A DNA stretch of 44,178 nucleotides from Actinomycetota bacterium (GCA_021325015.1 JAJPHY010000150.1:1-44178), one strand, 5' to 3'. Counted from the stretch's first letter, positions 1-19,025 are shown. Numbers and translations: made by a program. Notes: generated by a model from the sequence alone, not told the origin.

Positions 1-851
1 ATCGGTCCCCAGATGGTGCCGAGGCCCCCGATCACGAGCATGGTGACGTCGATCGACATCGGCGTGAGGCCCATGGCCGACGTCGTGAACGACTGGTTGT
101 AGCTGAGGTAGAGTCCGCCGGCCACCCCGGCGATGAAGCCGGAGATCGCGAAGGCGATGACTCGGTACCTCAACGGGCTGATCCCCCGCGCCGCTGCGTA
201 GGCGGGGGAGTCACGGATGGTTCGCAGAGCGATCCCCAACCTGGAGGAGCGGATCCAGGCGACGAGGAGGGTCGCGGCGGCCGCCACCGCGAGGACCGTC
301 CAGAAGTACGCATGCAGCGCGGTCGTGGGGGGCAGGAACGAGTACAGCCCTCGAACGGTCGGGAAGCCGAACGAGCCTCCGGTCAGACCGGCCGGGTCGT
401 TCACAACGATGAACAGGAACACCTGCGCGAACGAGAACGTGAGCAGCGATGTATAGATCCCGTGCAGTCGGAGCGTCGGGAACGCGAGCAGGATCGACAC
501 GCCGGCGGCCAGGAGTCCTCCCAGCAGGATCGCAAGCGGCGGCGGCACCGGCGTGTGCAGCATCAGCAGGCCGGTGCCGTAGCCTCCGAGCGCGTAGATC
601 GCGAGCTGCCCGAAGTTCCAAACGCCGGCGATCCCGAGCACGAAGTTCCAGCTGATGTTGAGCACCAACGTGATCATCGCGGTCACCATCACCCCGACGG
701 CGTAGTCGTTGGACCACACGAACGGGACCAGGACCGCGACCGCTACCAGGGCCAGGATGCCGGCCTTCTCGGCCCCGCTCAGCGCCCGGCCGCGCCCGAT
801 CCGGGTGGCAGTCGGCGAAACGGTGGCGCCGGGCGCCGTGACGGCGCTCAC
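1..851 (-). CDS. livM: Branched-chain amino acid-type ABC transporter permease (LivM-like), 3' end outside window
   Basis: Not in the ORF track. Manual translation from GTG at 851 (GTGA overlap with the livH stop) gives a hydrophobic protein with LNISWNFVLGIAGVWNFGQLAIYALGGY, typical of LivM; the frame appears open to the window edge. Confidence 0.85.
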   Translation of the reverse strand, partial: MSAVTAPGATVSPTATRIGRGRALSGAEKAGILALVAVAVLVPFVWSNDYAVGVMVTAMITLVLNISWNFVLGIAGVWNFGQLAIYALGGYGTGLLMLHTPVPPPLAILLGGLLAAGVSILLAFPTLRLHGIYTSLLTFSFAQVFLFIVVNDPAGLTGGSFGFPTVRGLYSFLPPTTALHAYFWTVLAVAAAATLLVAWIRSSRLGIALRTIRDSPAYAAARGISPLRYRVIAFAISGFIAGVAGGLYLSYNQSFTTSAMGLTPMSIDVTMLVIGGLGTIWGP

Positions 852-1741
852 AGCCGCGCCTCCTCGGGCCTGCCCTTCAATCCGTGGGGCCGGACGATCA
901 GGATGAGCAGGATGATCCCGTAGAGGATCGGCAGGGACCACGTGGTCCCCACGAGGACCTCCGCGGTGGCCTGGATGAGTCCGATCGTGTACGCCGCGTA
1001 CAGCGTGCCCGGCAGGCTCCCCAGCCCCCCGAAGATCACCACGATGAGGGCCTCGAGCAAGGGCAGGTCCCCCGCGCCCGGATACGCGAAGAACTTCGCT
1101 CCCAGGAAGACGCCGCCGATCCCGGCGAGCGCCGACGCGAGCCCCATCGTGAGTGGGTACAGCCTCATCACGGGGACGCCCATCAGGCGGGCGGCGTCCA
1201 GATCCTGCGCCACCGCGCGGATCGCGAGCCCCCACCTCGTCCTCGCCAGGAACAGCCCCAGGGCGGCCATCAGTCCGATCGAGACCAGCGCCATCGTGAG
1301 GTTCTGATAGGAGAGGTCGACTCCCCGGTAGATGTCGATGCCGCCGCTCACCACCGGCGACACGTTCTTCTGGAAGGGCCCGAAGACCTGCAACGCGACG
1401 TTGGCGAAGACGATCGCGACCGCGAAGGTGGTGATGAACGTGACCATCTCGAAGTCGAACCCCCGACGCCCCATGAGCGGCTGCACAGAGATCAGCTCGG
1501 TGAAGGTTCCGAGCGCGAACGTGATCGCGAACGCGAACAGGATGGCCAGCGCGGGGCTCCATCCCGCCACGACCAGGACCCCCCATCCAACGAAGCTCCC
1601 GACCATCACCATCGAGCCCTGGGACATATCGAGGATCCGAAGCGTCCCGTAGATCAGCGTCATCCCGATCGCGACCAGGCCGTAGATCGAGCCGAGCACA
1701 ACCGTCTCGACCAGGATCCCGATGACGTCGGTCAGGTGCAT
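848..1741 (-). CDS. livH: Branched-chain amino acid-type ABC transporter permease (LivH-like)
   Basis: GSIYGLVAIGMTLIYG, RTRWGLAIRAVAQDLDAARLMGV, VIFGGLGSLPG and RPHGLKG motifs. Confidence 0.9.
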   Translation of the reverse strand: MHLTDVIGILVETVVLGSIYGLVAIGMTLIYGTLRILDMSQGSMVMVGSFVGWGVLVVAGWSPALAILFAFAITFALGTFTELISVQPLMGRRGFDFEMVTFITTFAVAIVFANVALQVFGPFQKNVSPVVSGGIDIYRGVDLSYQNLTMALVSIGLMAALGLFLARTRWGLAIRAVAQDLDAARLMGVPVMRLYPLTMGLASALAGIGGVFLGAKFFAYPGAGDLPLLEALIVVIFGGLGSLPGTLYAAYTIGLIQATAEVLVGTTWSLPILYGIILLILIVRPHGLKGRPEEARL

Positions 1742-1749
1742 GAGCCCTC

Positions 1750-2517
1750 CTACAGCGTGCCGAGATAGGTCTGGACGACGGTCTGATCCCTCGACAGCTC
1801 CTCGAGCGGACCGGTTCGGACGATCGATCCCATCTCGACGACGTGCACGATGTCGGCGACGTCGCCGATGTGGGTGAAGTTCTCCTCGACGAGCAAGATC
1901 GTCGTCCCCTGAGCGTGGATGTCCCGGATCGCCGCGTACACGCGCTCGATCGCGACGGGAGCCAGACCGAGGGAGGGTTCGTCGATCAGCAGGATCGAGG
2001 CCTCTCGCATCAAGCCGCGCCCGAGCCCGACCAGTCGACGCTCACCGCCGGAAAGCGTCCGGGCGCGTTGGCCGGCTCGTTCTCGGAGCCCCGGGATGAG
2101 GCCGTAGACGTGTTCGAGAGCGGCGTGCCGCTTCCGCCAGGACCTGGGCAGGAAGGCACCCATCAGCAGGTTCTCCTCGACGGTCATGTCGGGGAACAGC
2201 AGGTCGCCTTGTGGGATGTGGACCATGCCGAGGGTTGCGAGGTACTCAGCACTGCGGCCGTCGACGCGTTCGCCCGCAAGCCACACCTCTCCTCGCCGAC
2301 GCTTGACCAACCCGGAGATGGTGCGAAGCAGCGTGGTCTTGCCGTGTCCGTTCGGCCCGATGATCACGACCGTCTGGCCGGCAGGTACCCGAAGATCCAG
2401 GCCTCGAACGACCATGGTGTCGCCGTAGCCCGACCACAGATCTCGGACCTCGAGGATCGCGTCCCTCCCGGCCGGGACAGGCTCGGCTCCCGCCACGGCA
2501 CGTGGTGCCCCGTTCAT
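1750..2517 (-). CDS. livF: ABC transporter ATP-binding protein (LivF-like)
   Basis: Walker A GPNGHGKTT, signature LSGGE, LLIDEPSLGLAP; start trimmed to ATG 2517 (ATGA overlap with livG). Confidence 0.9.
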   Translation of the reverse strand: MNGAPRAVAGAEPVPAGRDAILEVRDLWSGYGDTMVVRGLDLRVPAGQTVVIIGPNGHGKTTLLRTISGLVKRRRGEVWLAGERVDGRSAEYLATLGMVHIPQGDLLFPDMTVEENLLMGAFLPRSWRKRHAALEHVYGLIPGLRERAGQRARTLSGGERRLVGLGRGLMREASILLIDEPSLGLAPVAIERVYAAIRDIHAQGTTILLVEENFTHIGDVADIVHVVEMGSIVRTGPLEELSRDQTVVQTYLGTL

Positions 2518-3293
2518 GCGCGCGGCTCGCGTTGGGTCAGATCGGCGCCGTGGCGCTGGCCAAGGTAGACCTCGATCACCTGGGGATCCGCAAGCATCTC
2601 GCTCGGCGTTCCGACGAAGAGCTCGGCGCCATGGTGCATGACCAGCACGCGGTCGGCGAGCGACGTCAGCGCGCGCATCACATGCTCGATGACCACAACC
2701 GCCAGGCCACCGTCCCGGAGCGTTCGGATCAGCCTCATCACGTGGTCGATCTCCTGAGGGTTCAGGCCGCCGAACGGCTCGTCGAGGAGGAGGACCCGCG
2801 GATTCGTCGCCAGGGCGGTCGCGAGCATCAGTCGTTTCTTGTCGAACACGCCGAGCGGGCCCGCCGGTGTGTCGGCACGGTCGGTGAGTCCCACGAAGTC
2901 CAGGTGACGCACCGCCTCGGCGATGTCGCCAGCCCTGCCACCCTCCCGGCGGTTTCGGCGAAAGGAGGCGGCCAGGTAGAGGTTCTCCAGCACGGTGAGC
3001 GAGTCGGCGATGGTGGGCTGCTGGAAGGTGCGGGCCAGGCCGAGCGCGCACCTTCTGTGGACGGACGCGTCCGCGATCGACACGCCGCCGAGCAGCACGT
3101 CACCGCTCGTCGCCGGCGTCAGCCCGGTGATGACGTCGAACAGCGTGGTCTTGCCGGCGCCGTTCGGGCCGACGATGCCGAGGATCTCTCCGGCCCGGAC
3201 CTCGAACGACACATCGACGACCGCTCGGAGCCCGCCGTAGTTCTTGCACAGCGCGCGGCCTTCGAGGACCGGGCGCAGCTCCCGATCGTTCAC
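2514..3293 (-). CDS. livG: ABC transporter ATP-binding protein (LivG-like)
   Basis: [39 protein letters not shown]; start GTG 3293 overlaps the binding-protein stop. Confidence 0.9.
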
Positions 3294-4642
3294 GTCAGCC
3301 AGGCTGGCAGCTGGAAGGTCCCCGTCGTGTACGGGTCGGGCGAGATCAGCACCTGCTGCCCGTTCTGGATCTGGAACGTCAGGTGCGGCATCCCGAGCGA
3401 GGGATCGGGTGTGAAATCGGGGTACGGCATGCAGGTGTTCCCGCCGGGGTCCAGGTCGAACGAGTAGGTCCCGCACACCCCTCGGTAGATCGTGCCCTTG
3501 ACGATCCCGTTGATCTTGTCGAACGCGTACGGATCTCCCGCCTCCGCTGCGGCCTGAGCCCACAGCTTGACCAGGTCGTACTGGTCGCCGGCGTTCGAGA
3601 ACCCGGGAGGCCGGTTGAACTTCTGCTGGAACGCCTCGGCGAACTGCTTCGCTCGGTCGTCTCCGGCCAGCACACCCACGACCGTCGACCACAGCACACC
3701 ATCGGCGGCATCCCCGGCCAGGTCCAGGTACTCGGGAATCGATGGCGCGTACTGCTGGTACACGAGCGAGTTCGTTGGGGACTGCCGGAACTGTTTCATG
3801 AACGAGGCCTCGTCGCCCGCCGCGTAGTCGCTGAAGAAGACGATCCCCGGATTCGCCGACCGGATCTTCACGAGCACCCCAGTCCAGTCCGCCTGAGGAA
3901 CTGTGAACTGCTCGAAGCCGTCCGTCGTCCAGCCCTGCTTCTCCATGCCGGCCTGAAAGGTCTTCGAGATGTTGAGCGAGTACGGGTCGTTGGACGTGAC
4001 GACGAAGATCGACTTCTTCGCGGGTGTCCACGTTCCGCTCTCGATCAGGTTGCTTACCAGGACGACGAAGCCGGGGCCGTACCAGGTCTCCGAGGGGTCG
4101 CCCTGGAAGATGTTGGTGATCTGGTGCTCCTTCACGTAGTCGACGTTGCCGTGCCAGGTGTTGACGTGGAACATCGGGATCCGGGCCTGAGCCACGATCG
4201 GGTACTCGACCGACGTGTAGGTCGTGAAGCCGGAGAAGATCGCCGCGACGTTCTGCGAGACGAGCTTCTGGAACACGTTCTTCATCACGTCGGGTTCTTG
4301 AGCTTTGGTGTCCAGGACCTGCAGCTTGAGCGGTCGACCGAGGACTCCGCCCGCGGTGTTGATCTCCGCGATGGCGAGCTGCTGACCGCGGACCATCTGC
4401 TGGCCATCCCCGGCGAACGGGCCGGTCACGGGGCTGGCCGACCCGATCAGGATTGGCTCCGCACTGCCGCCGCCCGCCGCGGTCGAGGCGGCTCCCGAAC
4501 CGGCGTTGCCGGCGAGGTAGCCGCCGACGCCGCCGATGACCAGTCCCCCCACGCCGGCACCCACCGCGCCCTGCAGGAGCTGCCGACGCGTGACCCTGCC
4601 GCCGGCTCCGGCGACCCGCTGCCCACCGGGCTCACTCGCCAT
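3290..4642 (-). CDS. ABC transporter substrate-binding protein (LivK/AmiC-type fold), Tat signal
   Basis: Twin-arginine VTRRQLL plus a hydrophobic stretch; LAIAEINTAGGVLGRPLKL motif; ATG 4642 preceded by a GAGGAGG RBS. Confidence 0.88.
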   Translation of the reverse strand: MASEPGGQRVAGAGGRVTRRQLLQGAVGAGVGGLVIGGVGGYLAGNAGSGAASTAAGGGSAEPILIGSASPVTGPFAGDGQQMVRGQQLAIAEINTAGGVLGRPLKLQVLDTKAQEPDVMKNVFQKLVSQNVAAIFSGFTTYTSVEYPIVAQARIPMFHVNTWHGNVDYVKEHQITNIFQGDPSETWYGPGFVVLVSNLIESGTWTPAKKSIFVVTSNDPYSLNISKTFQAGMEKQGWTTDGFEQFTVPQADWTGVLVKIRSANPGIVFFSDYAAGDEASFMKQFRQSPTNSLVYQQYAPSIPEYLDLAGDAADGVLWSTVVGVLAGDDRAKQFAEAFQQKFNRPPGFSNAGDQYDLVKLWAQAAAEAGDPYAFDKINGIVKGTIYRGVCGTYSFDLDPGGNTCMPYPDFTPDPSLGMPHLTFQIQNGQQVLISPDPYTTGTFQLPAWLT

Positions 4643-4715
4643 CCTGGTCCCCTCCTCACGATCGGTCGCGTGCGTCCGCACCGGATGAACGCGGACCCTA
4701 TGGGTCGGGCGGTTC

Positions 4716-4747
4716 CCCGGGCATCCGTCAAATGACGGATGCCCGGG
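4716..4747. promoter_or_regulatory. Palindromic operator CCCGGGCATCCGTCA-AA-TGACGGATGCCCGGG
   Basis: Perfect 15-bp inverted repeat in the divergent intergenic region between the binding-protein gene and the regulator; the core recurs at 11154-11172. Confidence 0.75.
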
Positions 4748-4825
4748 AAGGCATGCTCGGCACAGCGAGCGTTGCGCGTGCCCGTGGACGCGTGCGAGGA
4801 TGGCTGGCCTGCAGGGGGACGCAGC

Positions 4826-6583
4826 ATGGAGACGGTGTATGGCTCATCGGCCATCGTCCATCGCGATGGGACGATCGAAGAGCTCGAGGGGGCGGCTGGA
4901 CGCCGGTTGCTGCTGGCCAGTCCCGATCTCCTCCGGTACGCGAGGGCGTTGCTCCGGCTCGACGTTCCGGACGTGCGTTTCCTGTGGCATGGCGCGCCGG
5001 GATGGCTCCTCGTCCGCATGGAGCGTTCCCGTCAGGCTCGTTCCGACCGGTGCGTCGTCTCCCTGTGGTGGCGTGATCTCCCCTGTGGTCTGACTGCGCG
5101 CGAGCTCGACGTCCTGACGCTGATCGCCGGGGGGCTGGGAAACCGAGAGATCGCCGGACGCCTGCGCGCGAGCGTCCGGACGGTTTCCACGCACGTGGAG
5201 CACATCTTGCTGAAGCTCGGTGCGCGGAGCCGAGCCGGTGCGGCCGCCATCGCCGTCGATCGGGGACTGCTCCGGCTCCCCATTCCTGGGGGAGCGCGCG
5301 ATCTGGACGGTCTCGGGGTCGGAGCCCTGGAGGCCGCCGTCGCCGAGGAGCGCGACGCCACCCGCTTGATCCGAATCGACGCACCCATCGCGATCGATCG
5401 GCGGCGCCCCCACCTGATCGGCGCGGCGTTTCCGCTCAGCGGCCCGGCCCGTGCCGACGGAATCCAGATGCGCAACGGGGCCATGCTGGCGATCGATGAG
5501 ATCAACGCCCGAGGGGGGGTCGCCGGTCGACCGATCGAACTCGTGTCCGTCGACATGAACATCTTCTCAGAACAGGGGGTTCGCGATGCCTTCGGGCGGC
5601 TCGAGGCCGTGGACATCGACGCCATCATCGTCGGGTACACGCTGTCGGGAACCGAGTTCGCGCTCGAGGCGGCGGCGGATCTCGGCATCCCGTTCCTGCA
5701 CGCGACGACCTCCGAGGCGGCGCTCACGCGGGTTCGCTCCGACCCGGGACGCTTCCAGCGGATCTTTCAAGTCTGTCCGAGCGAGGTTCACTACGGAGTT
5801 GGTTTCATCCGGTTTCTGGACGATCTCGCCCGAGGGGAACGATGGGAGCCACCCAGTCGGCGACTGATGATCATCGAGACTCCCGTGGACAGCGGCCAGA
5901 TGGCGACGACGCCGACGCTGGCGGCGGCCGCCGCTTCTGGCTGGATCGTCGATGCCGTGGAGTGCGTGCCCGAGCTCGATGCGGACTGGGAGGGTCTTGT
6001 GCGCCGAATCCACGCCGTCGATCCCGCCGCTGTTTTGGTCGCGGACTTCGTTCCGAGAGAGCTTGCCGCCTTCCAGCGCGCGTATGCCGCGAACCCCACC
6101 GACGCGCTCGTCTACGCGATCTACGCGCCCTCCGTGCCCGAGTTCCTCGAGCTCGCGGGGCCGACCGCGGAGGGGCTGATCTGGTCGACCGTGACCGGTA
6201 CGTACCCGGATCTCCTCGGCGGACGCTTCGCCCGCCGCTACCTGCGGGCGTTCGGGCGCCCGCCGGGCCGCTCGCACGCCGGGATCGCATACGACGAGGT
6301 TCACCTTCTCGCCAGTGCGTGGGCGGGCGTTGGCAATCCCCGCGATTTCGACGGCGTCGCGTCCCATCTCCGGCATGGGGCGTACCGCGGGGTCAACGGC
6401 ACCTACTTCTTCGACGAGTCCCAGGGAGCCATCTCGTACCCCGGAATGACGCTCGACCCCTCGCTCGGGCAGGCCCACCTCGTGTTCCAGGTGCAAAACG
6501 GGGAGCACCGGGTACTGGCTCCCGCCCCGTACGTCCAGGCGGCGTTCCGTCCACCTCCATGGGTACGGGCGAGGGCCACCTGA
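4826..6583 (+). CDS. LuxR-family HTH regulator fused to a cytoplasmic solute-binding-protein domain
   Basis: LTARELDVLTLIAGGLGNREIAGRL...TVSTHVEHILLKLG (LuxR HTH) followed by LAIDEINARGGVAGRPIEL and a full PBP1-like domain; no signal peptide. ATG 4826 follows a purine-rich RBS (the ORF track starts at 4739). Confidence 0.85.
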   Translation: METVYGSSAIVHRDGTIEELEGAAGRRLLLASPDLLRYARALLRLDVPDVRFLWHGAPGWLLVRMERSRQARSDRCVVSLWWRDLPCGLTARELDVLTLIAGGLGNREIAGRLRASVRTVSTHVEHILLKLGARSRAGAAAIAVDRGLLRLPIPGGARDLDGLGVGALEAAVAEERDATRLIRIDAPIAIDRRRPHLIGAAFPLSGPARADGIQMRNGAMLAIDEINARGGVAGRPIELVSVDMNIFSEQGVRDAFGRLEAVDIDAIIVGYTLSGTEFALEAAADLGIPFLHATTSEAALTRVRSDPGRFQRIFQVCPSEVHYGVGFIRFLDDLARGERWEPPSRRLMIIETPVDSGQMATTPTLAAAAASGWIVDAVECVPELDADWEGLVRRIHAVDPAAVLVADFVPRELAAFQRAYAANPTDALVYAIYAPSVPEFLELAGPTAEGLIWSTVTGTYPDLLGGRFARRYLRAFGRPPGRSHAGIAYDEVHLLASAWAGVGNPRDFDGVASHLRHGAYRGVNGTYFFDESQGAISYPGMTLDPSLGQAHLVFQVQNGEHRVLAPAPYVQAAFRPPPWVRARAT

Positions 6584-6586
6584 CGG

Positions 6587-7612
6587 CTATCGGAGGAGCG
6601 GGGCGACGCGCTCGCCGAACACGTCCAGGGCTTCCCGCTGCAGTGCCCGGTCCATTCCAGGCCAGTAGAGCCGAGCGATGTAGTGCACGTCGCCTCCGGC
6701 CGCGTCCCGGAACCGCGCGATCTGCTCGGCCACCTCCTCGGGCGTGCCGAGGAGGATCGAGGCGCGCAGGGCCTCCTCCTCGCCCGAGGGAAGAGGCGGC
6801 GGGGCCACTGGAGGACCGAGACGCGACCGAGCCCCGTCCATGTCCTCGTACTTCCAGGACACGTACCGGTGGTAGGGGCGCACCAGTTCCCAGGCCCGTC
6901 GTGGGTTGCCCTCGAACGCGAAGGTCGGCAGGTGCAGTGAGATCGCAAGGGTCGCGGGATCCCTTCCGGACCGCTCCCGCTCCTCGCGCGCCCACCGGAC
7001 CTGCTCGGCGAAGGATTCCGCCGTCACGTCGGTCGCCATGAACCCGTCGCCGATTCTCCCCGCCCGCCGGACGGCGGGCTCCGAAAGCGCCCCGATCCAC
7101 AGCGGAGGACCGCCCGCCCGGGACGGAGCCGGGGTGACGGCCACGCCCGGATAGGACCGGGTGCCGCCCGTGACGAGCTTTCCTGCCCAGGCCTGCCGCG
7201 CAACCCTCACTGCCTCTTCGAGTCGCGACACCCGCTCGCGCAGCGGAACGCCGAACGCCTCGAACTCTTCCGCGCGCCATCCAAGGCCGAGTCCGAGCAC
7301 GAGACGCCCCCGCGACAGGAGGTCGACGACCGCGGCGTCCTCGACCAAGCGGAGCGGCTCGATGAGGGGGGCGAGGAGCAGGGCGGTGCCGACCAGCACG
7401 CGGCGGGTTCTGGCGGCGATCGCGGCGCACATCGGCAGCACCGAGGGCAGGTAGGCATCGTCGACGAAGTGGTGCTCGGAGACCCACACCGAGTCCAAGC
7501 CGATGCGCTCTGCCTGCTCCGCGAGCTCGAGAGCCTCCGTGTATCGGTCTTCGTCGGACCGCGGATCCCCCGGGTACCGCTGGCAGGTGATCAGGCCGAA
7601 GCCCAGCTTCAT
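6587..7612 (-). CDS. LLM-class flavin-dependent oxidoreductase
   Basis: AERIGLDSVWVSEHHF, LSRGRLVLGLGLGWRAEEF, PPLWIGA; start ATG 7612 overlaps the C45 stop. Confidence 0.9.
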   Translation of the reverse strand: MKLGFGLITCQRYPGDPRSDEDRYTEALELAEQAERIGLDSVWVSEHHFVDDAYLPSVLPMCAAIAARTRRVLVGTALLLAPLIEPLRLVEDAAVVDLLSRGRLVLGLGLGWRAEEFEAFGVPLRERVSRLEEAVRVARQAWAGKLVTGGTRSYPGVAVTPAPSRAGGPPLWIGALSEPAVRRAGRIGDGFMATDVTAESFAEQVRWAREERERSGRDPATLAISLHLPTFAFEGNPRRAWELVRPYHRYVSWKYEDMDGARSRLGPPVAPPPLPSGEEEALRASILLGTPEEVAEQIARFRDAAGGDVHYIARLYWPGMDRALQREALDVFGERVAPLLR

Positions 7613-8778
7613 ATGCGGCTTGCCTTCTGGGCGGGGATCACCCCGCGTACCGCCGAGGGCTTCGACAGGAAGGAGGCGTAGTCGAGCTCGGCGTACGGCG
7701 TCGTGCAGGGGTGCCCATCGGCCACCCACATCCGTCGCTCATCGAGGTCCATCAGCACCGAGGCGACGGTGGCACCCTGATCGTGCGCGTCCATGCGCGG
7801 GTCGGGGTGGCAGCAGATCCCGGAAGGATGGTTGGCGTGGTCGGCCAGGAGCTCCCGGAAGCTGCCGATCGCGAGCTTCGACCCGCGCCGACGGACCCCT
7901 GCGCGGAGCCGCTCCAGCCGGAAAGGGCTGTCGGGCATGACCCAGAGCGACACATCCTTCGCATCGAAGGACGGCGATACGAAGTGGTTGGTGTGCAGGA
8001 GGACGCCGTCGACCGGGAACGTGAGGAACAGCCGGGAGAAGTCGCCCGGAGCCGCTTCAATGTCGACCGCGATGCCGTCGACCGAGGCGATCAGGTAGTT
8101 GGCCGAGGAGGATCGCACGCCGCGTTGCGTCACGGCGTAGGCATCCGACAGGTTCTCGGCGTCGAGGATTCCGCGAAGCACCAGGTGGTACGGCACGCCT
8201 GGCTCACCGAGGTCACGGTCGGTCACCAGGGCGTTGGTGGCGAGCCCGATTCCCGAGGAGTTCATCCCGATCTTGGCGAGCAGCCCGGCCTCGACCACCG
8301 TCACGAAGTCCGGCCCCTCGTCCTGCCGGACCTCCAGAATCACGACCGTCTCGAACGAATGAAGCAGCCAGTCCCAGTTCTGCCCGATCAGCGTGTGCCC
8401 GTCCGCGCTCCGCTCGGGAAGCACGGCGAATGCGCTGCAGCCGTCGAGCGGGGCGCCCTGGGCGGCAGCGATCCGTGCCTTGGCGGCAAACATCACCTCG
8501 GTCCTGACGTTGATCGCCAGGACGTCCTCGAAGGCCGCGTCGGCGCCCTCCGCGATGCCGCGCATCTCCTCGAGGTACCGAACGTCGAACCGCTCGATCG
8601 GCGCGATGTAGCGCGTGGCCTCCCGTTGAACGTCGGGCCAGCGCCACCCCGTGTAGTGGGCGAAGACCTCCTCGTAGGCCTCGATCGAACGGCGCACCCG
8701 GTCGCGAGCCTGCTCGCCGTACTGCCGGCCGCGCTCCCGGGGCGTCCCGTCCACCCGGACCTGAGGAAACCGTTCCAT
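7609..8778 (-). CDS. C45-family autoproteolytic Ntn acyltransferase/hydrolase
   Basis: GTPRERGRQYG N-terminus, DG|CS autoprocessing site, GQNWDW, GMNSSG, HTNHF. Confidence 0.85.
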   Translation of the reverse strand: MERFPQVRVDGTPRERGRQYGEQARDRVRRSIEAYEEVFAHYTGWRWPDVQREATRYIAPIERFDVRYLEEMRGIAEGADAAFEDVLAINVRTEVMFAAKARIAAAQGAPLDGCSAFAVLPERSADGHTLIGQNWDWLLHSFETVVILEVRQDEGPDFVTVVEAGLLAKIGMNSSGIGLATNALVTDRDLGEPGVPYHLVLRGILDAENLSDAYAVTQRGVRSSSANYLIASVDGIAVDIEAAPGDFSRLFLTFPVDGVLLHTNHFVSPSFDAKDVSLWVMPDSPFRLERLRAGVRRRGSKLAIGSFRELLADHANHPSGICCHPDPRMDAHDQGATVASVLMDLDERRMWVADGHPCTTPYAELDYASFLSKPSAVRGVIPAQKASRI

Positions 8779-8797
8779 GGACCCGACCCTCCTTCGA

Positions 8798-9544
8798 TCA
8801 GATCGCGGTTGCACCGCCGTCCACGGGCAGCGCAACTCCGGTCACGTAGCCGGATCCGTCGGCGGACAGGAACGCGATCGCCTCGGCGACCTCGCGCGGC
8901 GTTCCAAGACGTCTCAGCGGCACCATCTCGTGGAGGTACCGCTCCCCGACCGCAGGGTCATCCATCATCCGCAGCATGGGAGTATCGATCACGCCCGGGC
9001 ACACGGCGTTCACCCGGATCGCCGGCGCCAGCTCCACCGCCAGCTGCTTGGTCAGCGCGATCACTCCGGCTTTGCTGGCGTTGTAGTGGACCGACGGCTC
9101 GTCCCGATCCGCGACGAGCCCCGCCGTCGACGAGATGTTCACGATCGTCCCGCGACTGCCCGCCGCCACGAGTCGTGCGGCGACGGCTCGGGCGACCAGC
9201 CACGAGCCACGGAGGTTCGTGTCCACGACCTCGTCCCACTCCGCTACGTCGAGGTCGATCGCGGGGGCGAACCGGTAGACGCCGGCGGCGTTGACCAGCA
9301 GGTCCGGCGCCCCGCCGAGCGCGGTCGCCGCCTCATCGACGGCGCGCTCGACCTCCGCCGGATCCCGCACGTCGGCGATCACGGCCGACGCACCGAGCTC
9401 GGAGGCGACCGGGGCGAGGGCGTCCCCGCGCCGGTCCAGCACGCACATGCGCGCGCCCTCCTCTGCCAGCAGAGCCGCGGTTGCTCGCCCGATCCCCGAC
9501 GCACCGCCGGTGACGAGCGCGCGGCGCCCATGGAATCGGCTCAC
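8798..9544 (-). CDS. SDR-family oxidoreductase
   Basis: TGGASGIG, VNAAG, YNASK, NAVCPG. Confidence 0.92.
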   Translation of the reverse strand: MSRFHGRRALVTGGASGIGRATAALLAEEGARMCVLDRRGDALAPVASELGASAVIADVRDPAEVERAVDEAATALGGAPDLLVNAAGVYRFAPAIDLDVAEWDEVVDTNLRGSWLVARAVAARLVAAGSRGTIVNISSTAGLVADRDEPSVHYNASKAGVIALTKQLAVELAPAIRVNAVCPGVIDTPMLRMMDDPAVGERYLHEMVPLRRLGTPREVAEAIAFLSADGSGYVTGVALPVDGGATAI

Positions 9545-10317
9545 GTGAGCAGCACCCCGCCGTTCACGCCGATGGTCTGCCCGGTGACGTAGGCCGCGTC
9601 GTCGGAGACCAACCAGGCGACGGTTCCCGCGACGTCGTCGCCCGTTCCATGACGGCCCAGCGGGATCGTGCGTCTGATCGCTTCAAGCTCCTCCTCGAAG
9701 GTGGTGCCCCGCTCGTCGGCGCGGGCGCGGACGTAGTCGAAGTGCATCTGGGTTCGCATGTTCCCGGGAGAGACCGTGTTCACGCGAACGCCTAGGGAGG
9801 CAAGCTCGAGCGCGAGCACCTGAGTGAGCAGCGCAACCCCGGCCTTCGACGAAGCGTAGGCGCAATCCCCGGCCACGGCCTGCTGTCCGAGAATCGAGCT
9901 CGTGTTCACGATCGCGCACCCTTTGCCCTGGCGAGCGAACTGACGCGCGACCGAACGCGACATGAGGAACGTGCCCACCAGGTTCACCTCAATCACCCGG
10001 CGGAACTCGGCCGCCGACGTCTCGGTGACCGGTGTCCCTGGGCCGCCGACACCCGCGAGGTTGACCAGCACGTCGATACCGCCGAACGCCGACACCGTTG
10101 CCGAAACGGCGGCGTCGCAGAAGCGCTCGTCCGTGACGTCCCCGACTAACGTGAGCACCCGGGCGCCTTCATGCAAGGACCGCAGGCGATCCGCCGTCTC
10201 GTGAACGGCGGCCGAGACGTCCACCAGCGTAACGGGCGAGCCGTCGCGGACGAGCCGCTCGGCGACCCGGGCCCCGAGCCCCCCGGCAGCCCCGGTCACG
10301 ATCGAGCGTCGCCTCAC
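9541..10317 (-). CDS. SDR-family oxidoreductase
   Basis: TGAAGGLG, VNLAG, YASSK, NTVSPG; start GTG 10317 overlaps the deacetylase stop. Confidence 0.9.
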   Translation of the reverse strand: MRRRSIVTGAAGGLGARVAERLVRDGSPVTLVDVSAAVHETADRLRSLHEGARVLTLVGDVTDERFCDAAVSATVSAFGGIDVLVNLAGVGGPGTPVTETSAAEFRRVIEVNLVGTFLMSRSVARQFARQGKGCAIVNTSSILGQQAVAGDCAYASSKAGVALLTQVLALELASLGVRVNTVSPGNMRTQMHFDYVRARADERGTTFEEELEAIRRTIPLGRHGTGDDVAGTVAWLVSDDAAYVTGQTIGVNGGVLLT

Positions 10318-11096
10318 GGGACCCGCTCCGCGATCTCGGCGCAGGTGGCAACCCAGACGTCGTCGTGGCCGGTCACCCACTCCAGCATGTGTTCGAGAAG
10401 GGCCAGCCGGTATGGGCGGCCCATGATCTGGGGGTGCATCGTGAGCACGTACGCCCCGCCGAGCCTGCGGTAGCCGAGAAACTCCGCCTCCCAGATCGCC
10501 CCCACTTCGTCCGCGGTGGAGATCTTCTTGGTCCAGGTCGCGCCGTCGAACCAGAAGTGCGCGGCGTCGTCGAGGATCCAATGAATCGGGATCTCAACCA
10601 GTCCGGACCGCTTGTGACGGTACGGGCGCAGGTCGTCCATGAGATTCGACGAGTAGCGAAAGCCGCGAGCCTGCAGCAGCTCCTCGGTGCTCGCGCTGAA
10701 GTCCCAGGAGGGGGACCGGTACCCCACGATCTCGGTCCCGAAGGAACGAAGGACCTCCAGTCCCTTCGTCAGCTCGGCCTCCTCCTCGTCGGGGGCGAGC
10801 GCGGTCGGCGACGTGTGCGTGTAGCCGTGGTGCGCGAGCTCGTGGCCTGCGGCCACGATCTCGTTCACCCGCTCGGGGTGCCGCTCGGCCACGCGGCCGG
10901 GGACGAAGAAGGTCGCCCGCACGCCGAACCTCTCGAGTGCTTCCAGGATCAGAGGCACGGCAACCTTGGCCCCGTACGTTCCCTGGGAGAGGACCCCCGG
11001 CTTCGAGGCGTTCGCGGGGTCCTCTCCGATCCACACCTCCTCGGCGTCGAAGTCGAACGTGAAGGCTGCGGCAGCTCGCTTCCCTTCGGGCCACAC
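10314..11096 (-). CDS. Polysaccharide deacetylase family protein (CE4, PuuE/PgdA-like, cytoplasmic)
   Basis: FTFDFD, ATFFVPG, HELAHHGYTH, GYRSPSW, LTMHPQIMGRP; no signal peptide. Confidence 0.88.
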   Translation of the reverse strand: MWPEGKRAAAAFTFDFDAEEVWIGEDPANASKPGVLSQGTYGAKVAVPLILEALERFGVRATFFVPGRVAERHPERVNEIVAAGHELAHHGYTHTSPTALAPDEEEAELTKGLEVLRSFGTEIVGYRSPSWDFSASTEELLQARGFRYSSNLMDDLRPYRHKRSGLVEIPIHWILDDAAHFWFDGATWTKKISTADEVGAIWEAEFLGYRRLGGAYVLTMHPQIMGRPYRLALLEHMLEWVTGHDDVWVATCAEIAERVP

Positions 11097-11153
11097 GTAC
11101 GAACCCCCGTCTCCGTTGAGCCTCGTGACGATAGGTGCGGGTCCTCGGCGTCA

Positions 11154-11175
11154 GCATCCGTCATTTGACGGAGGG
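11154..11175. promoter_or_regulatory. Second copy of the palindromic operator (GCATCCGTCA-TT-TGACGGAGGG)
   Basis: 19 consecutive bases identical to the reverse complement of the 4721-4742 core; lies about 58 bp upstream of the deacetylase start. Confidence 0.72.
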
Positions 11176-11225: not shown

Positions 11226-12719
11226 TCAGCCGTCCTCGGCACCCGATTCCCCATCGGGCAGCCAGAACTCGACCCGCGTGCCCGAGGCCGGTGCACCGGA
11301 GACCTTCAGCCAGCCACCGCATGACTCCGCTCGCTCGCGCATGCTCTCCAGCCCGAGATGCCCCGCGCGCGCGGATCGGTCCGGCCCCAAGCCCTTGCCG
11401 TCGTCGCTCACGTGCACCAGCATCCCCCCGCGCGAGCGCTCGAGAGTCACGTGAACGGAGCGGGCCTCCGCGTGCTTGGCGACGTTCCGGAGGGCCTCTT
11501 GCAGGATCCGGAAGCAGGTCGTGCGCGCCGGCTCGGCCGGCTCGGCCTGCAGCCGGTTCTTCAGGCTCGCCTCAACCCCCGTGTCACGGTGGAGATCGTC
11601 GAGCAGTCCTCGCACGGCGTCGGCGAGCCCTCCGCGTTCGAGGCTCGGCGGCACGAGCTCGAACAGGAGCGTGCGAAGCTCCCGCGTGACGGATTCGGTC
11701 ATGCGCCCGAGCTCCTCGACCGCGGCGACGAGCTCGGAGTCGTCCAAGCGGCTGCGGAGCATCTCAAGCCGGAGTCCCATGGCGACGGCCTTCTGCACGG
11801 GGCCGTCGTGCACTTCGCCGGCGATGCGCCGGTGCTCCTGCTCCCGGGCCTCCACCACGCGCGCGAGCAGGCGCTTGCGGTCCTCGTCGGTCTCCCGGAG
11901 CGCCGAGACGGTCATGCGCAGCACCTGCTCGACCTCCTTGTGGGCGGTGACGTCGACCATCACCCCCTGCCAGAGCTCCGGAGTCGAGGGCACGGGGACG
12001 GCCTCGTCGCGAATCCACACGACGCGCCCGTCGCGAGCGAGCACGCGATACTCGCACCGGAACGGTCGCCCCTCTCGCTGGCACGCCGCCTCCTCCTGGA
12101 GCACCCGATCCCGGTCCTCGGCGTGCAGGTGCGTGGTGAGGGCGTTCTCCTGCATCATCCACTCCTCAGGCGAGTACCCGAGCACGTCGTGGATCCTCGG
12201 GCTCACGTAGAGCCACTGACCCGTCGGGCCGAGGCCCGCCACGTAGACGATGCAGGGGATCTGCTCGACGAGCGTCCGGTACTTCTGCTCGGCTTGCCGG
12301 AGCTCGCGCTCGACCAGCCGGCGCTCGGTGATGTCGATCGCGAAGCCGACGGCGCCCACGATCTGGCCATCCGGCTGCACCTGCGGCACCACGCGCGACA
12401 GAAACGTCCGGTCCATCCAGTCGAGCTCGTAGGTCGCCGCCCGCCCTTGCAACGCGCGCAGGTGAGCGTCGATCGGTGTGAACGTGGCGTCGTCAGTCCC
12501 GAAGAACTCGAAGAGCGTCCGGCCGACGTTCTCGCCGGACTTGGATCCCAGGCCGGCAAGCGCCCCGCCCTCGGACAGCGTGAACCGCAGGTCTCGATCG
12601 ACCGCCCAGATCACCGCGGGCATCTGCCCGATGAGCGTCGGAAAGCGGTCGCCCTCGCGCGGTGCCGAACCGCCCTCGAGCGTCTCTCGGGCCGCGCGAA
12701 CGCCCTCCCCCCCGGCCAT
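11226..12719 (-). CDS. Soluble PAS-PAS sensor histidine kinase (HisKA_3/NarX-like)
   Basis: Two PAS/PAC units, EHRRIAGEVHDGPVQ H-box, EALRNVAKHA N-box, DDGKG, GHLGLESMRERA. Confidence 0.9.
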   Translation of the reverse strand: MAGGEGVRAARETLEGGSAPREGDRFPTLIGQMPAVIWAVDRDLRFTLSEGGALAGLGSKSGENVGRTLFEFFGTDDATFTPIDAHLRALQGRAATYELDWMDRTFLSRVVPQVQPDGQIVGAVGFAIDITERRLVERELRQAEQKYRTLVEQIPCIVYVAGLGPTGQWLYVSPRIHDVLGYSPEEWMMQENALTTHLHAEDRDRVLQEEAACQREGRPFRCEYRVLARDGRVVWIRDEAVPVPSTPELWQGVMVDVTAHKEVEQVLRMTVSALRETDEDRKRLLARVVEAREQEHRRIAGEVHDGPVQKAVAMGLRLEMLRSRLDDSELVAAVEELGRMTESVTRELRTLLFELVPPSLERGGLADAVRGLLDDLHRDTGVEASLKNRLQAEPAEPARTTCFRILQEALRNVAKHAEARSVHVTLERSRGGMLVHVSDDGKGLGPDRSARAGHLGLESMRERAESCGGWLKVSGAPASGTRVEFWLPDGESGAEDG

Positions 12720-12860
12720 CTCACCCCCTCGTCGACGACTCGACGCGCGCTCCGATACCTAACGGGTGTATCTCGACCTTGAGCGATGTATCGGCACGCC
12801 GGGGGGAAAGGTGAGCGGTCCCTTCGAGCGGTCCGGGTTCGCCCGGGCGGCGGTCCGGGC

Positions 12861-14570
12861 TCAGGCCTCGGCGACCCCGCTGCCCGGAAGCCAGGCCTCG
12901 ACGGTCGTTCCCGCCCCGGGCCGGCTCTCGATCCGGCTCCAGCCGCCCACCATCTCCGCCCGCTCGCGGATGGAGGTGATGCCGAGATGTCCCGGCCGTC
13001 CGTTGCGCAGAATCTCGGGATCCATGCCGACCCCGTCGTCGCGGACGCGAAGGAAGAGCCCTCCCTCTCGCTCCTCGAGAAGCACGTCGACGCGGCTTGC
13101 CTCGGCATGGCGCTGCACGTTCGACAGGGCCTCTACCGCGATTCGGTAGGCGACCGTCCGGATCCCGTCGGGAGGCTCAGAGATCAGACGGTCCTCGACC
13201 CGGCAGTCGCGGAGCTCGCCCTTGGACAGGTCGACGAACTCCCGAACCGCGGCCACCAGTCCACCGGCGTCGAGCGAAGGAGGACGGAGGTCGAACATCA
13301 TGTGCCGGAGGTGATCGATCGCGAGGCGGACGACGTCTTGGAGTCCGTCGACGATCTCGATCTGTTCGGGATCCGACAGGCTCCGCCGGAGGAGCTGGAG
13401 GCGGAGCCCGACGGCGGTGATCTTCTGAACGGGGTCGTCGTGAATCGCCTCCGCGATCCTGCGCCGCTCGACCTCCTCCGCCGAGACCAGCACCTGGAGC
13501 AGCCGTTGCCGCTCCATGTCGGTGCGCCGCAACAGCTCGAAGCTCTCACGGAGCTCCTCGTCGGCCCTCGTACGGGCCGTGATGTCGAACAACGCGCCCT
13601 GCCAGTAACGCGGCCTCCCATCCGGGTCGTCGACGCGGACGGACTCTTCCTGGATCCAGAGCGTCCGGCCGTCCTTCGCGACGGCTCGGTACTCGGCGCT
13701 GAAAGGGGTGCCCTGCTCGTCCGCCCGGAGGCCGAGCTTGATGATCCGCTCGCGATCGTCCGGGTGCAGGATGCGGTCTGCCCAAAGCGACGGATCTCCC
13801 AGCCACTCCTCGACCGTGTATCCGAGGATGGTCTGCAGCTTGGGGCTTACGTAGAGGGGCCGGATGTCGTCGGGTCCGGGCCCGGTGATCTCGTCGATGT
13901 ACGTGATGGCCGGGAGGCGTTCGACCAGCGTTCGATACCTGGTCTCTGCGTCTCGCGCCTCGCGGACCAGCTCGCCCAGGCGGCCGTGGAAGTCGAGCAG
14001 CAACGCAAGCACGAGCCCCACGGTCGAGATGCCTCCCGCGGTCCGGATCCCGGACACGAACTCCGCAGGAAGCTCTGGCCCGACCGAGACCAGCCGCGCG
14101 ACCAAGAGGGTGGTCGCGGTCCATGCGAAACAGGCCCCGAAGATCGTCCAGTGTCGGGCTTGGCCCGCGTACAGGACCGAGGTGAGGGAGATGAGCAGGG
14201 AGACGCTCACTGGAACGAGCGCGATATCGGGCATCGCGAGCGTGACCACCGTTCCCATCACCAACAGTGAACCCCACAGCATGGTGAGCGCCGAGCGCGA
14301 ACGCCCCAGGTCGACCAGACGTCGACCGATCAAACAGGCGACGCCGGTGGCGGCGGTCGCGGACGCGGTCGCGATCAGCCAGCCGCTGTGGAGCGCCACG
14401 GCGCCTGCGGTGCCGCTGGTCGCGAAGCCGAAGGCAAGGAGTCCGATCCACCCGAGCAGGCGGTGGAGGTTTCGATCGGACACACCCTCCGGTACCTCGA
14501 CGTCCCGGATGCGCTCGACCACCTGAACGGACTCGCCCGCCCCATGCGGACGGTCGAGCGGAACGGTCAT
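12861..14570 (-). CDS. Membrane-bound PAS sensor histidine kinase (HisKA_3/NarX-like)
   Basis: N-terminal multi-TM region, PAS/PAC, ERRRIAEAIHDDPVQ, EALSNVQRHA, DDGVG, GHLGITSIRERA. Confidence 0.9.
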   Translation of the reverse strand: MTVPLDRPHGAGESVQVVERIRDVEVPEGVSDRNLHRLLGWIGLLAFGFATSGTAGAVALHSGWLIATASATAATGVACLIGRRLVDLGRSRSALTMLWGSLLVMGTVVTLAMPDIALVPVSVSLLISLTSVLYAGQARHWTIFGACFAWTATTLLVARLVSVGPELPAEFVSGIRTAGGISTVGLVLALLLDFHGRLGELVREARDAETRYRTLVERLPAITYIDEITGPGPDDIRPLYVSPKLQTILGYTVEEWLGDPSLWADRILHPDDRERIIKLGLRADEQGTPFSAEYRAVAKDGRTLWIQEESVRVDDPDGRPRYWQGALFDITARTRADEELRESFELLRRTDMERQRLLQVLVSAEEVERRRIAEAIHDDPVQKITAVGLRLQLLRRSLSDPEQIEIVDGLQDVVRLAIDHLRHMMFDLRPPSLDAGGLVAAVREFVDLSKGELRDCRVEDRLISEPPDGIRTVAYRIAVEALSNVQRHAEASRVDVLLEEREGGLFLRVRDDGVGMDPEILRNGRPGHLGITSIRERAEMVGGWSRIESRPGAGTTVEAWLPGSGVAEA

Positions 14571-15102: not shown

Positions 15103-16185
15103 ATGCGGCCTCGCCCATTCCGGTCGGTATCCCGCCTGATCGTCGCTCTGGTTCCGCTCGCCCTCGTCGCCTCGGCGTGCGGCGGCGGATCCTCGCCCGG
15201 ATCGAACACCTCCCGCGGTCCGTGCACGCCGGCCAAGACGCCGGTCATCAACTTCGCCGCCTACAGCACGCCCCGCGAGGTCTACGGCCAGGTCATCCCC
15301 GCCTTCCAGTCCATGTGGAAGGAGGAGCACGACGGGCAGTCGGTGATCTTCCAGGAGTCCTATGCCGGCTCCACGACGCAGGCGCAGAACGTCATCGCCG
15401 GCTACCCCGCGGACGTCGTGGCGCTGTCGCTCGCACCCGATGTGGACGCGATCAAGGATGCGGGCCTGATCACGCACGACTGGACGCAGGCGCCCGACGG
15501 CGGCATGGTCTCGACCTCGGTCGTGGTCTTCGACGTCCGGCCCGGCAACCCGCTCGGCATCAAGGACTACGACGACCTGACCAAGCCGGGCGTTCAGATC
15601 CTCACCCCCGACCCCGCACAGAGCGGCGGTGCGCGCTGGAACCTCGTGGCGGCCTGGGGCGCGGCCCTCCGCGGGTACGCCGGCGTGCGGAAGGGCGACG
15701 AGGCCGGGGCGGCCGAGCTCCTCAAGGGGATTTTCGAGAACGTGCTCACGCTCGACAAGAGCGCCCGAGACTCGATCCAGAACTTCGAGTCCGGCAACGG
15801 CAACGTCGCGATCACCTACGAAAACGAGGTCAAGACCGCGCAGGAGGCGGGCCTTCCGGATGAGGCCGTGTACCCGCCGTCCACCGTCCTCATCCAGAAC
15901 CCGGTCGCAGTGGTGGACAAGAACGCCGAGGCGCACTGCGTGCTCGACATCGCCAACGCGTTCGTCGATTTCCTGCACACTCCCGAGGTCAAGCAGATGT
16001 ACCTGGAGGCCGGGTACCGGTCGACCGATCTCGCGCTCGCGAAGAAGGGCGATCCCAAGCTCGGCTACCCGCCGATCGGGGATCTGTTCACGGTCGACGA
16101 CTTGGGCGGCTGGCCGGCGCTCGACCAGAAGCTGTTCGGCCCCGACGGGATCGCGACGACGGCCCTCGCCGAGGCCCAGGGCTGA
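15103..16185 (+). CDS. sbp: Sulfate ABC transporter substrate-binding lipoprotein
   Basis: Lipobox LVASAC; QESYAGSTTQAQNV, ADVVALSL, GNPLGIKDYDDL, TPDPAQSGGARWN, ITYENE. Confidence 0.9.
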   Translation: MRPRPFRSVSRLIVALVPLALVASACGGGSSPGSNTSRGPCTPAKTPVINFAAYSTPREVYGQVIPAFQSMWKEEHDGQSVIFQESYAGSTTQAQNVIAGYPADVVALSLAPDVDAIKDAGLITHDWTQAPDGGMVSTSVVVFDVRPGNPLGIKDYDDLTKPGVQILTPDPAQSGGARWNLVAAWGAALRGYAGVRKGDEAGAAELLKGIFENVLTLDKSARDSIQNFESGNGNVAITYENEVKTAQEAGLPDEAVYPPSTVLIQNPVAVVDKNAEAHCVLDIANAFVDFLHTPEVKQMYLEAGYRSTDLALAKKGDPKLGYPPIGDLFTVDDLGGWPALDQKLFGPDGIATTALAEAQG

Positions 16186-16198
16186 GCCGAGATCGACG

Positions 16199-19013: not shown

Positions 19014-19025
19014 GCATCTCGGTCG

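Follow-up and report, generated by a model that had tools for sequence, protein, structure and literature searches.

The question raised by this locus is what function is served by a protein that joins a LuxR-type helix-turn-helix (HTH) DNA-binding domain to the receptor domain of an ATP-binding cassette (ABC) importer, and whose gene stands back to back with that of an exported receptor of the same kind. The DNA analysed is a stretch of 44,178 nucleotides from an Actinomycetota bacterium (GCA_021325015.1, JAJPHY010000150.1:1-44178), called the window below; its G+C content is about 70%, and the genome it belongs to measures 2.6 Mb and is 96.5% complete. Judging from the sequence, we consider it probable that the protein, here called the regulator, is a cytoplasmic one-component transcription factor made of a PAS-like domain, a LuxR HTH and a binding-protein sensor, that it belongs to an old and large family, that it acts through a palindrome as an activator of both uptake and breakdown, and that it is an ancient paralogue of the binding protein encoded next to it.

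Domain architecture of the regulator

The regulator gene lies at 4826..6583 on the plus strand and encodes 585 aa from the ATG at 4826, within a frame that is open from 4739. The ATG at 4826, and not position 4739, is most likely the start, because the database copy of the protein (P0003) is 585 aa long; the match in the genome covers 4826-6580. Divergent from it is an open frame of 463 aa on the minus strand, whose product carries a Tat-type (twin-arginine translocation) motif, TRRQLL, followed by a hydrophobic stretch and a Peripla_BP_6 domain. The likely start of this substrate-binding protein is the ATG at 4642, with GAGGAGG upstream, which gives a gene at 3290..4642 in a frame open to 4681. 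A preliminary description of this DNA had located both open frames correctly (3290-4681, minus strand, and 4739-6583, plus strand) and had noted that the C-terminal part of the regulator, about 390 aa, is collinear with the exported protein. This observation is confirmed: BLASTP aligns residues 75-462 of the binding protein with residues 223-609 of the regulator open frame at 144/392 identities (37%) with 9 gaps and an E-value of 3e-83, and the three peptide pairs quoted as examples are all present in the translations. Both proteins also have the same nearest solved relative, 3H5L (E 3e-68 for the binding protein and about 7e-63 for the sensor), with the next matches only at about 1e-12 to 1e-13, which argues that sensor and binding protein belong to one distinct LivK-like subfamily with a C-terminal extension. 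Two further full-length Peripla_BP_6 proteins of the genome are not found at E 0.001 with the regulator as query.

The domains of the regulator were assigned by Pfam and by structure prediction. GerE, the LuxR-type HTH, is matched only at residues 118-172 of the regulator open frame (5090..5254, plus strand; 55.9 bits against a cut-off of 23.5), and Peripla_BP_6 is found in both the regulator and the binding protein; in the regulator it scores 103.2 bits against a cut-off of 31.7 and forms, together with the C-terminal extension, a sensor at 5417..6580 which we take from its sequence to be cytoplasmic. The AlphaFold2 model of the full-length protein (97 sequences) has a predicted local distance difference test (pLDDT) score of 94.6 and a predicted template modelling (pTM) score of 0.88, and a separate model of residues 1-160 has a pLDDT of 90.2. 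In the model the N-terminal domain (4826..5089, plus strand; residues about 4-84) has the order strand-strand-helix-helix-strand-strand-strand. Its matches in VIA-align are PAS domains, namely ThkA (3a0v_A, Z 8.8, root-mean-square deviation (rmsd) 2.0, 75 residues aligned), SrrB (7jl6_B, Z 8.3) and 3fc7_B (Z 8.1), all of which are borderline according to the tool's own note, and its Atlas scores stay below 0.9 and serve as leads only. No Pfam family, including any PAS model, was found for this domain in the Pfam search, and a sequence search of the PDB yields nothing (E 0.14). The helices of the HTH, at residues 91-145 of the 585-aa model, match NarL (1je8_A, Z 12.8, rmsd 1.4, 65 residues aligned) and DegU, with Z 12.8-13.3 for the two. 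Between the HTH and the sensor (5255..5410, plus strand) lie a GLLRLPxPGG motif, conserved in the consensus of our alignment A1, one helix and a linker modelled as disordered (residues 178-189, pLDDT below 50), and the two-lobed sensor begins at residue 196.

According to the model, the regulator has three parts, which are, in order, a small domain resembling PAS, the LuxR HTH and the Peripla_BP_6 sensor. The idea that an N-terminal HTH had taken the place of the Tat signal is not borne out, as about 85 residues precede the HTH and the front 150 residues make up a complete PAS-like plus LuxR module. In the modelled arrangement a sensor-like domain precedes the HTH, as is usual, and the binding-protein domain follows as an addition after both.

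Two well-known classes of LuxR-type proteins do not accommodate it. The Pfam search finds no Response_reg (REC) domain in the regulator, the response-regulator models of NCBIfam cover the HTH residues 117-178 only, and the modelled topology of the front domain differs from the REC fold; the regulator would therefore not be a NarL/FixJ response regulator. There is likewise no Pfam match to the autoinducer-binding domain (PF03472). LasR, RhlR and TraR are among the fold-search matches of the front module, and the structures of QscR (3szt_A), RhlR (7r3h_A), 2q0o_B, TraR (1h0m_A) and CviR (3qp5_A) align to model residues 85-150, that is to the HTH, alone. On this comparison the protein appears to stand outside the quorum-sensing LuxR receptors (LuxR, TraR, LasR). 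Neither a signal peptide nor a Tat motif was found in the regulator, whose hydrophobicity over the first 120 residues peaks at 1.02, the value for the binding protein being 1.57. The most fitting reading is a cytoplasmic one-component sensor, as had been proposed earlier, the regulator being a signal-less, HTH-bearing paralogue of its exported neighbour.

The fusion itself is genuine. Single contig pieces in two sequencing runs (X4 and X6), neither of them flagged as one from which this DNA might come, span the junction of HTH and sensor, 4869-5723, without indels, and 119 of the 120 best matches in a 90%-identity protein collection carry GerE and Peripla_BP_6 together (52-99% identical, mostly 545-627 aa), which rules out an assembly artefact. 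Scanning the representatives of 50%-identity clusters with the sensor domain gave 231 matches at E <=1e-30. Among the best 150 of these, 128 contain at least 350 residues of the domain, and these near-complete representatives divide into 75 fused, 41 exported and 8 short proteins, 2 fused fragments and 2 long proteins without a LuxR HTH. The full-length regulator occurs in 14 of 294 genomes of the same class, all within one family. A sample of 401 genomes of the phylum, searched with a stricter filter, returned only the genome itself and one match resembling the binding protein, which is not evidence of absence, and a scan of genome contigs with the single protein gave one true relative only. 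For the metagenome scan the closer 38-row alignment A2 was used, the 97-row alignment A1 being too diverse.

Three representatives (P0197, P0212 and P0226) form a small clade nested among the exported proteins and combine the same binding-protein subfamily with other DNA-binding modules: P0197 with GGDEF_2 and a PucR-type HTH_30, P0226 with an ArsR-type HTH_5, and P0212, of 1130 aa, with a GerE HTH. From their position in the tree these recruitments look independent of the main fused clade.

We found no description of a regulator combining GerE and Peripla_BP_6 in the open-access literature, and one may exist elsewhere. By term search, the word 'periplasmic' never occurs in a 2012 survey of actinobacterial LuxR regulators (PMC3466318), and a review of solute-binding proteins in signalling gives Peripla_BP_6 for exported proteins only (PMC8050422). 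The family is old and large, and seems not to have been studied.

Several known systems resemble the regulator in part. Members of the LacI/GalR family also carry, within one polypeptide, a DNA-binding domain followed by a small-molecule sensor of the type I binding-protein fold, and they often control transport and catabolism of the compound sensed. In the introduction of a preprint, the family is traced back to an ancient event in which a solute-binding protein became fused to a DNA-binding domain (bioRxiv 10.1101/2025.03.23.644840). The regulator differs in Pfam terms by a GerE HTH instead of HTH_LacI with its hinge helix, by a LivK/AmiC-like Peripla_BP_6/Peripla_BP_5 core with a C-terminal extension instead of the sugar-type Peripla_BP_1/3, by the extra PAS-like domain in front, and by an operator position which suggests activation, not repression. 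By HTH and core it would thus fall outside LacI/GalR, while its working may be LacI-like. VqmA and EL222, in which a PAS or LOV domain is followed by a LuxR HTH, resemble the front 150 residues, and VqmA chains are the best Foldseek matches of the front module (6kju_A, E 1.1e-6). However, the PAS-like domain of the regulator has only about 80 residues and no Pfam PAS model, and the two domains are arranged differently, since phage VqmA (7dwm_B, 141 residues aligned over both, Z 12.3) superposes with an rmsd of 10.7 and TM-scores are 0.35-0.45; moreover, the HTH of VqmA and EL222 is not followed by a binding-protein domain. AmiC of Pseudomonas aeruginosa is a signal-less LivJ-like fold that serves as an intracellular amide sensor controlling catabolic genes, and its structure (1qnl) is found among the fold matches of the sensor at rank 49 (TM 0.77, target-normalised; 17% identity in the fold alignment). 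Yet AmiC is a separate protein restraining the RNA-binding antiterminator AmiR, whereas here the sensor is fused to the DNA-binding domain. Binding-protein-fold sensors joined to DNA-binding domains other than that of LacI are known from E. coli XylR (AraC-type) and B. subtilis AraR (GntR-type), which differ from the regulator in HTH class, in their sugar-type sensors and in domain order, the HTH of XylR being C-terminal. The nearest folds, 3H5L and SAR11_0655, are exported transporter receptors without DNA-binding parts, unlike the regulator. Receptor-derived transcription factors are known mainly from LacI/GalR; the present family would be a second large one, built from another receptor class and another HTH and probably consisting of activators.

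A conserved palindrome and the predicted promoters it precedes

The intergenic region between the regulator and the binding-protein gene contains a perfect 15-2-15 inverted repeat at 4716..4747 (predicted operator 1), with a core at 4722-4741. The palindrome is 20 bp long, CATCCGTCA-NN-TGACGGATG. A second site with the same palindrome and 1 mismatch of 18 (predicted operator 2) is located at 11155..11174, upstream of a catabolic operon described below. In the whole 2.6-Mb genome the 20-bp core is found exactly once and once more with a single mismatch; both occurrences are in the window, where shuffles give an expectation of 0.02 matches against the 2 observed.

The site is conserved in relatives. 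With either C or G accepted at a single position of each half, it stands in the gap separating the two divergent genes, regulator and binding protein, in 11 of the 13 related genomes; out of 16 positions, five of these have 0 mismatches, four have 1 and two have 2, and the remaining two genomes show a degenerate repeat. A second site before an operon led by the deacetylase gene is present in 5/5 of the closest loci, including L040-L043. In metagenome loci, 35 of 53 regulators have the site within 300 nt upstream, and only 2 further matches occur elsewhere in the 364,582 nt of these loci, one of them at the start of urease genes. Loci that have the same transporter and no regulator lack the palindrome in their intergenic DNA. 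The match at the urease genes (L094:7234-7251, 1 mismatch) lies at the start of urease subunit genes, beside a regulator of the family and an amidohydrolase gene; no TANNNT hexamer is found at the usual offset from it. Two other candidates were treated as chance matches: C129:266 (2 mismatches), which lies inside an IlvD-like coding region and lacks the -10 geometry, and C87:1613 (3 mismatches), which lies inside a long open frame (130-1911).

Both sites in the window stand at the same distance from a putative -10 element read from the sequence. The hexamer TAGGGT of the binding-protein promoter (4695..4700, minus strand) and the hexamer TATCGT before the catabolic operon (11128..11133, minus strand) are each 31.5 bp from the centre of their operator. 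On the binding-protein strand, 22 of 35 loci have a TANNNT hexamer 30-31 nt from the palindrome centre, all other offsets being represented by fewer than 5, and at the second sites a TANNNT is found at offset 30 or 31 in 5/5 loci. If these hexamers are -10 elements, the palindrome would be centred near -43, in place of a -35 element. LuxR-type class II activators bind near -43, and the lux box is located at -42.5. A putative promoter of the regulator gene itself (4772..4801, plus strand) consists of TTGCGC (4772-4777), an 18-bp spacer and GAGGAT (4796-4801); it was read from aligned upstream regions. A terminator scan of 4600-4860 found none.

These features suggest the following mechanism. 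Two copies of the regulator would bind the 20-bp palindrome at both sites (dimerisation is read from the palindrome alone), the flytrap sensor would close on its ligand, and the regulator would then recruit RNA polymerase in the manner of a class II-type activator, a role proposed because the palindrome centre lies 31.5 bp upstream of the -10-like hexamer at both promoters. Uptake, through the binding-protein/ABC operon, and breakdown, through the five-gene operon, would be switched on together, and the regulon would comprise the importer and the five catabolic enzymes. The regulator family can be regarded as an uncharacterised, widespread variant of a known principle, and the prediction of operator and regulon is well supported. 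The locus brings together a predicted operator, a pair of target promoters, likewise predicted, that share one geometry, and a paralogous exported receptor.

Origin of the sensor and alternative explanations

The preliminary description had explained the gene pair by duplication of the neighbour on the spot and fusion to an HTH, with the regulator retaining the exact ligand specificity of the importer. The setting is favourable to such an origin, in that the two genes are adjacent, divergent and collinear paralogues with 37% identity, within the genome the sensor domain has no strong match besides the neighbour (1.4e-78), and the binding-protein gene stands divergent beside the regulator in 13/13 evaluable related genomes (one further contig being too short). 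The trees, however, tell otherwise. In a FastTree phylogeny of 160 rows, rooted with the two other Peripla_BP_6 proteins of the genome, the fused sensors fall into one clade of 96 rows (support 99) that holds 73 fused proteins, 13/13 regulators of the window's family, 9 fragments and 1 row labelled exported, while a separate exported group of 60 rows (support 89) includes all 17 neighbours, 2 rows being unresolved. IQ-TREE with 64 rows recovers a fused clade of 29 rows with a Shimodaira-Hasegawa-like approximate likelihood ratio test (SH-aLRT) value of 100, and the window's neighbour lies deep inside the exported clade. Forcing the regulators and binding proteins of the lineage into one clade costs 196 log-likelihood units (approximately unbiased (AU) test, p 0.001); the grouping tested was that of the earlier hypothesis, and the test was run after the tree had been seen. 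Within the subfamily the sensor is also no closer to the adjacent protein than to others, an outcome that the preliminary description had named as refuting its proposal: exported proteins from elsewhere reach 46% (P0133), 45% (P0151) and 44% (P0137) against 37% for the neighbour, and in an alignment of 35 pairs, 16 of the 34 binding proteins from other loci equal or surpass the window's own binding protein in their match to its sensor. Nor do regulator domains pair with their adjacent binding proteins, for the partner identity of 34.9% equals that of non-partners (34.8%; 485 of 2000 permutations at least as high). Pairing is, moreover, missing from 18 of 42 metagenome loci and from the basal branches. 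The duplication account is thus very improbable, and its second half, the shared ligand, is unsupported. The trees argue that most fused forms share a single origin, and that sensor and neighbour are ancient paralogues which travel together in this lineage rather than recent local copies. Across the 35 pairs, regulator-regulator and binding protein-binding protein identities are correlated (r 0.79), as expected if the pair is co-inherited. A comparison of column conservation between fused and exported forms (39 shared columns, 0 conserved but different, 7 fused-only, 11 exported-only) gave no lead to specificity.

How constant the pairing is can be judged from metagenomes. With at least 1000 nt of upstream sequence available, 24 of 42 loci have an adjacent paralogous binding protein; the unpaired regulators adjoin genes of the deacetylase family, amidohydrolase, urease, hydantoinase or other transporter genes. 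In two related genomes (L055 in G203, 92% complete, and L057 in G194, 95% complete) the genes for the deacetylase, SDR and C45 enzymes share one strand with those for the binding protein and the ABC components, and neither regulator nor palindrome is present. As these loci keep the cluster without either, the regulator looks like something added to a gene cluster that can otherwise stand by itself. In another genome (L052 in G081, 68% complete) the regulator and the binding-protein gene are split into several frames or pieces, which may be a decaying pair or a poor assembly.

A number of observations weigh against the activator of uptake and breakdown as we propose it. The regulator stands without an adjacent paralogous binding protein in the 18 metagenome loci just mentioned. 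A FastTree phylogeny of 72 regulators requires at least 3 changes of the pairing trait and has earliest branches that lack the neighbour, the root being uncertain; pairing may therefore be acquired rather than ancestral. In 4 related genomes the transporter is present and the regulator absent. Partner pairs show no extra similarity, which gives no support for a shared ligand specificity. Binding of the regulator to the palindrome is deduced from their co-occurrence, in a genome with about ten other LuxR-type HTH matches, and two sensor kinases adjoin operator 2 with no response regulator nearby. Sequence and conservation are the only basis on which the -10 hexamers were assigned, a scan of 4600-4860 for the sigma-70 consensus found no promoter, and a palindrome covering the -35 region would suit a repressor just as well.

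The last point leads to an alternative that shares protein and operator with our proposal and inverts the sign: a LacI-style repressor would sit ligand-free on the -35 region of both promoters and be released by the ligand. The overlap of the palindrome with the place of the -35 element agrees with this, and so does the order of HTH before binding-protein domain, which resembles the LacI/GalR repressors; besides, L055 and L057 carry the transporter and catabolic genes without a regulator, so that these genes are usable on their own. However, no -35-like hexamer stands at the right spacing from the -10-like hexamers, which is typical of activator-dependent promoters, and the fixed distance of 31.5 bp sets the centre near -43, the position of LuxR-type activators. 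Neither argument is decisive, and we regard repression as unlikely, though as a serious alternative. It is much harder to remove the regulator from the palindrome altogether, taking the repeat for an RNA hairpin or for the site of another LuxR-type protein, such as a response regulator of the two PAS-HisKA_3 kinases (11226-14570) adjoining operator 2. Kinases of this kind have LuxR-family response regulators as their partners; no response regulator gene was detected near the two among open frames of at least 150 aa from 14.4 to about 21 kb. A 66-nt stretch of the window does fold as RNA at -45.8 kcal/mol (z -7.1), but the relatives conserve the core sequence itself and not pairing alone, and they lack the GC-rich extension of the arms seen in the window; a terminator would be unexpected between divergent genes and none was found. 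The site also follows the regulator through 35 of 53 metagenome loci with varied neighbours and is absent from the intergenic DNA of regulator-less loci. This leaves such a reading only a slight chance. There is finally the reading of the databases, in which family members are named 'ABC transporter substrate-binding protein' or 'branched-chain amino acid transport system substrate-binding protein', in keeping with a Peripla_BP_6 match above the Pfam cut-off. It was rejected and has next to no probability: the protein lacks a signal peptide and a Tat motif (among the representatives a Tat-like motif occurs in 4 of the 75 fused proteins, as compared with 22 of the 41 exported proteins), its GerE HTH is above the cut-off, and its front module folds like PAS-LuxR transcription factors. 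As names for proteins that bear an HTH and are devoid of a signal peptide, they are a systematic annotation error, and such mis-annotation skews transporter counts and regulon predictions for these bacteria, which are for the most part uncultured.

Neighbouring genes and the candidate ligand

The remaining genes of the ABC importer occupy 3..3290 on the minus strand, downstream of the binding-protein gene and on the same strand. They encode two ATPases (2514-3290 and 1750-2511) and two permeases, one at 848-1741 and one running off the start of the window, which Pfam assigns to the Liv/Urt type. In NCBIfam their best matches all stay below the cut-offs of the respective models (UrtD 187 bits against 304, UrtE 175 against 286, UrtB 150 against 250), and the same is true of the matches to UrtA (46 bits, cut-off 493) and to the LivJ-type model (53.5 bits, cut-off 477). 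Because the scores lie under these equivalog cut-offs, the transporter is distinct from, yet related to, the Urt/Liv importers.

Tail-to-tail with the regulator is the five-gene catabolic operon (6587..11096, minus strand), annotated with Pfam and NCBIfam. It encodes a polysaccharide-deacetylase-family enzyme weakly like PuuE allantoinase (10314-11096), two short-chain dehydrogenase/reductase (SDR) oxidoreductases (9541-10314 and 8798-9544), a C45 autoproteolytic acyltransferase/hydrolase (7609-8835) and a luciferase-like oxidoreductase (6587-7729). The C45 enzyme scores 289 bits against a cut-off of 85 in its NCBIfam model, while the other products score under their family cut-offs. The related loci L040-L043 have a gene set identical to that of this operon.

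The most likely ligand of the regulator is the compound that the importer takes up, or a product close to it. The enzymes point weakly, and by analogy, to an amide, a lactam or a ureide: this rests on the C45 amidase-type hydrolase, the deacetylase-family enzyme, the hydantoinase, amidohydrolase and urease genes of relatives (hydantoinase/oxoprolinase-family genes are found in L040 and L073) and the fold likeness to SAR11_0655. The nearest solved folds of the sensor are 3h5l_A (TM 0.88, 34% identity; sequence E 6.6e-63), for which no ligand is reported in the literature searched, and 8wch_A (SAR11_0655; TM 0.82, 19% identity). SAR11_0655 (8WCH) is described as binding the lactam L-pyroglutamate with a Kd below 5 nM, with 5-oxoprolinase genes adjoining (PMC11485210). 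With an identity of 19%, it gives no more than a hint as to the specificity of the sensor. If the ligand is found, the regulator and the transporter could be used as a biosensor and importer pair for that compound. A further-reaching scenario, which we put forward as speculation and think more doubtful than not, would have the exported and the cytoplasmic proteins descend from one ancient receptor and recognise the same amide or lactam nutrient, uptake and breakdown being activated only upon its arrival in the cytoplasm; the subfamily would then be a reusable sensor cassette placed behind at least three HTH classes (LuxR, PucR and ArsR, with LuxR a second time in a separate small clade). If true, a LacI-like design would have been invented independently a second time, and nature would offer a source of matched sensor/transporter pairs.

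Beyond the catabolic operon, the two PAS-HisKA_3 sensor kinases adjoining operator 2 are encoded at 11226-12719 and 12861-14570 on the minus strand, and in L041 a similar PAS kinase adjoins the deacetylase gene. The plus strand of the window at 15103-20956 carries a sulfate/molybdate-type ABC importer, consisting of SBP_bac_11, two BPD_transp_1 permeases and a CysA-like ATPase with TOBE, followed by an NMT1-type binding protein and another ABC ATPase. In one related genome a heliorhodopsin gene (L049:4706-5635; Pfam E 2e-96) is located two genes from the regulator.

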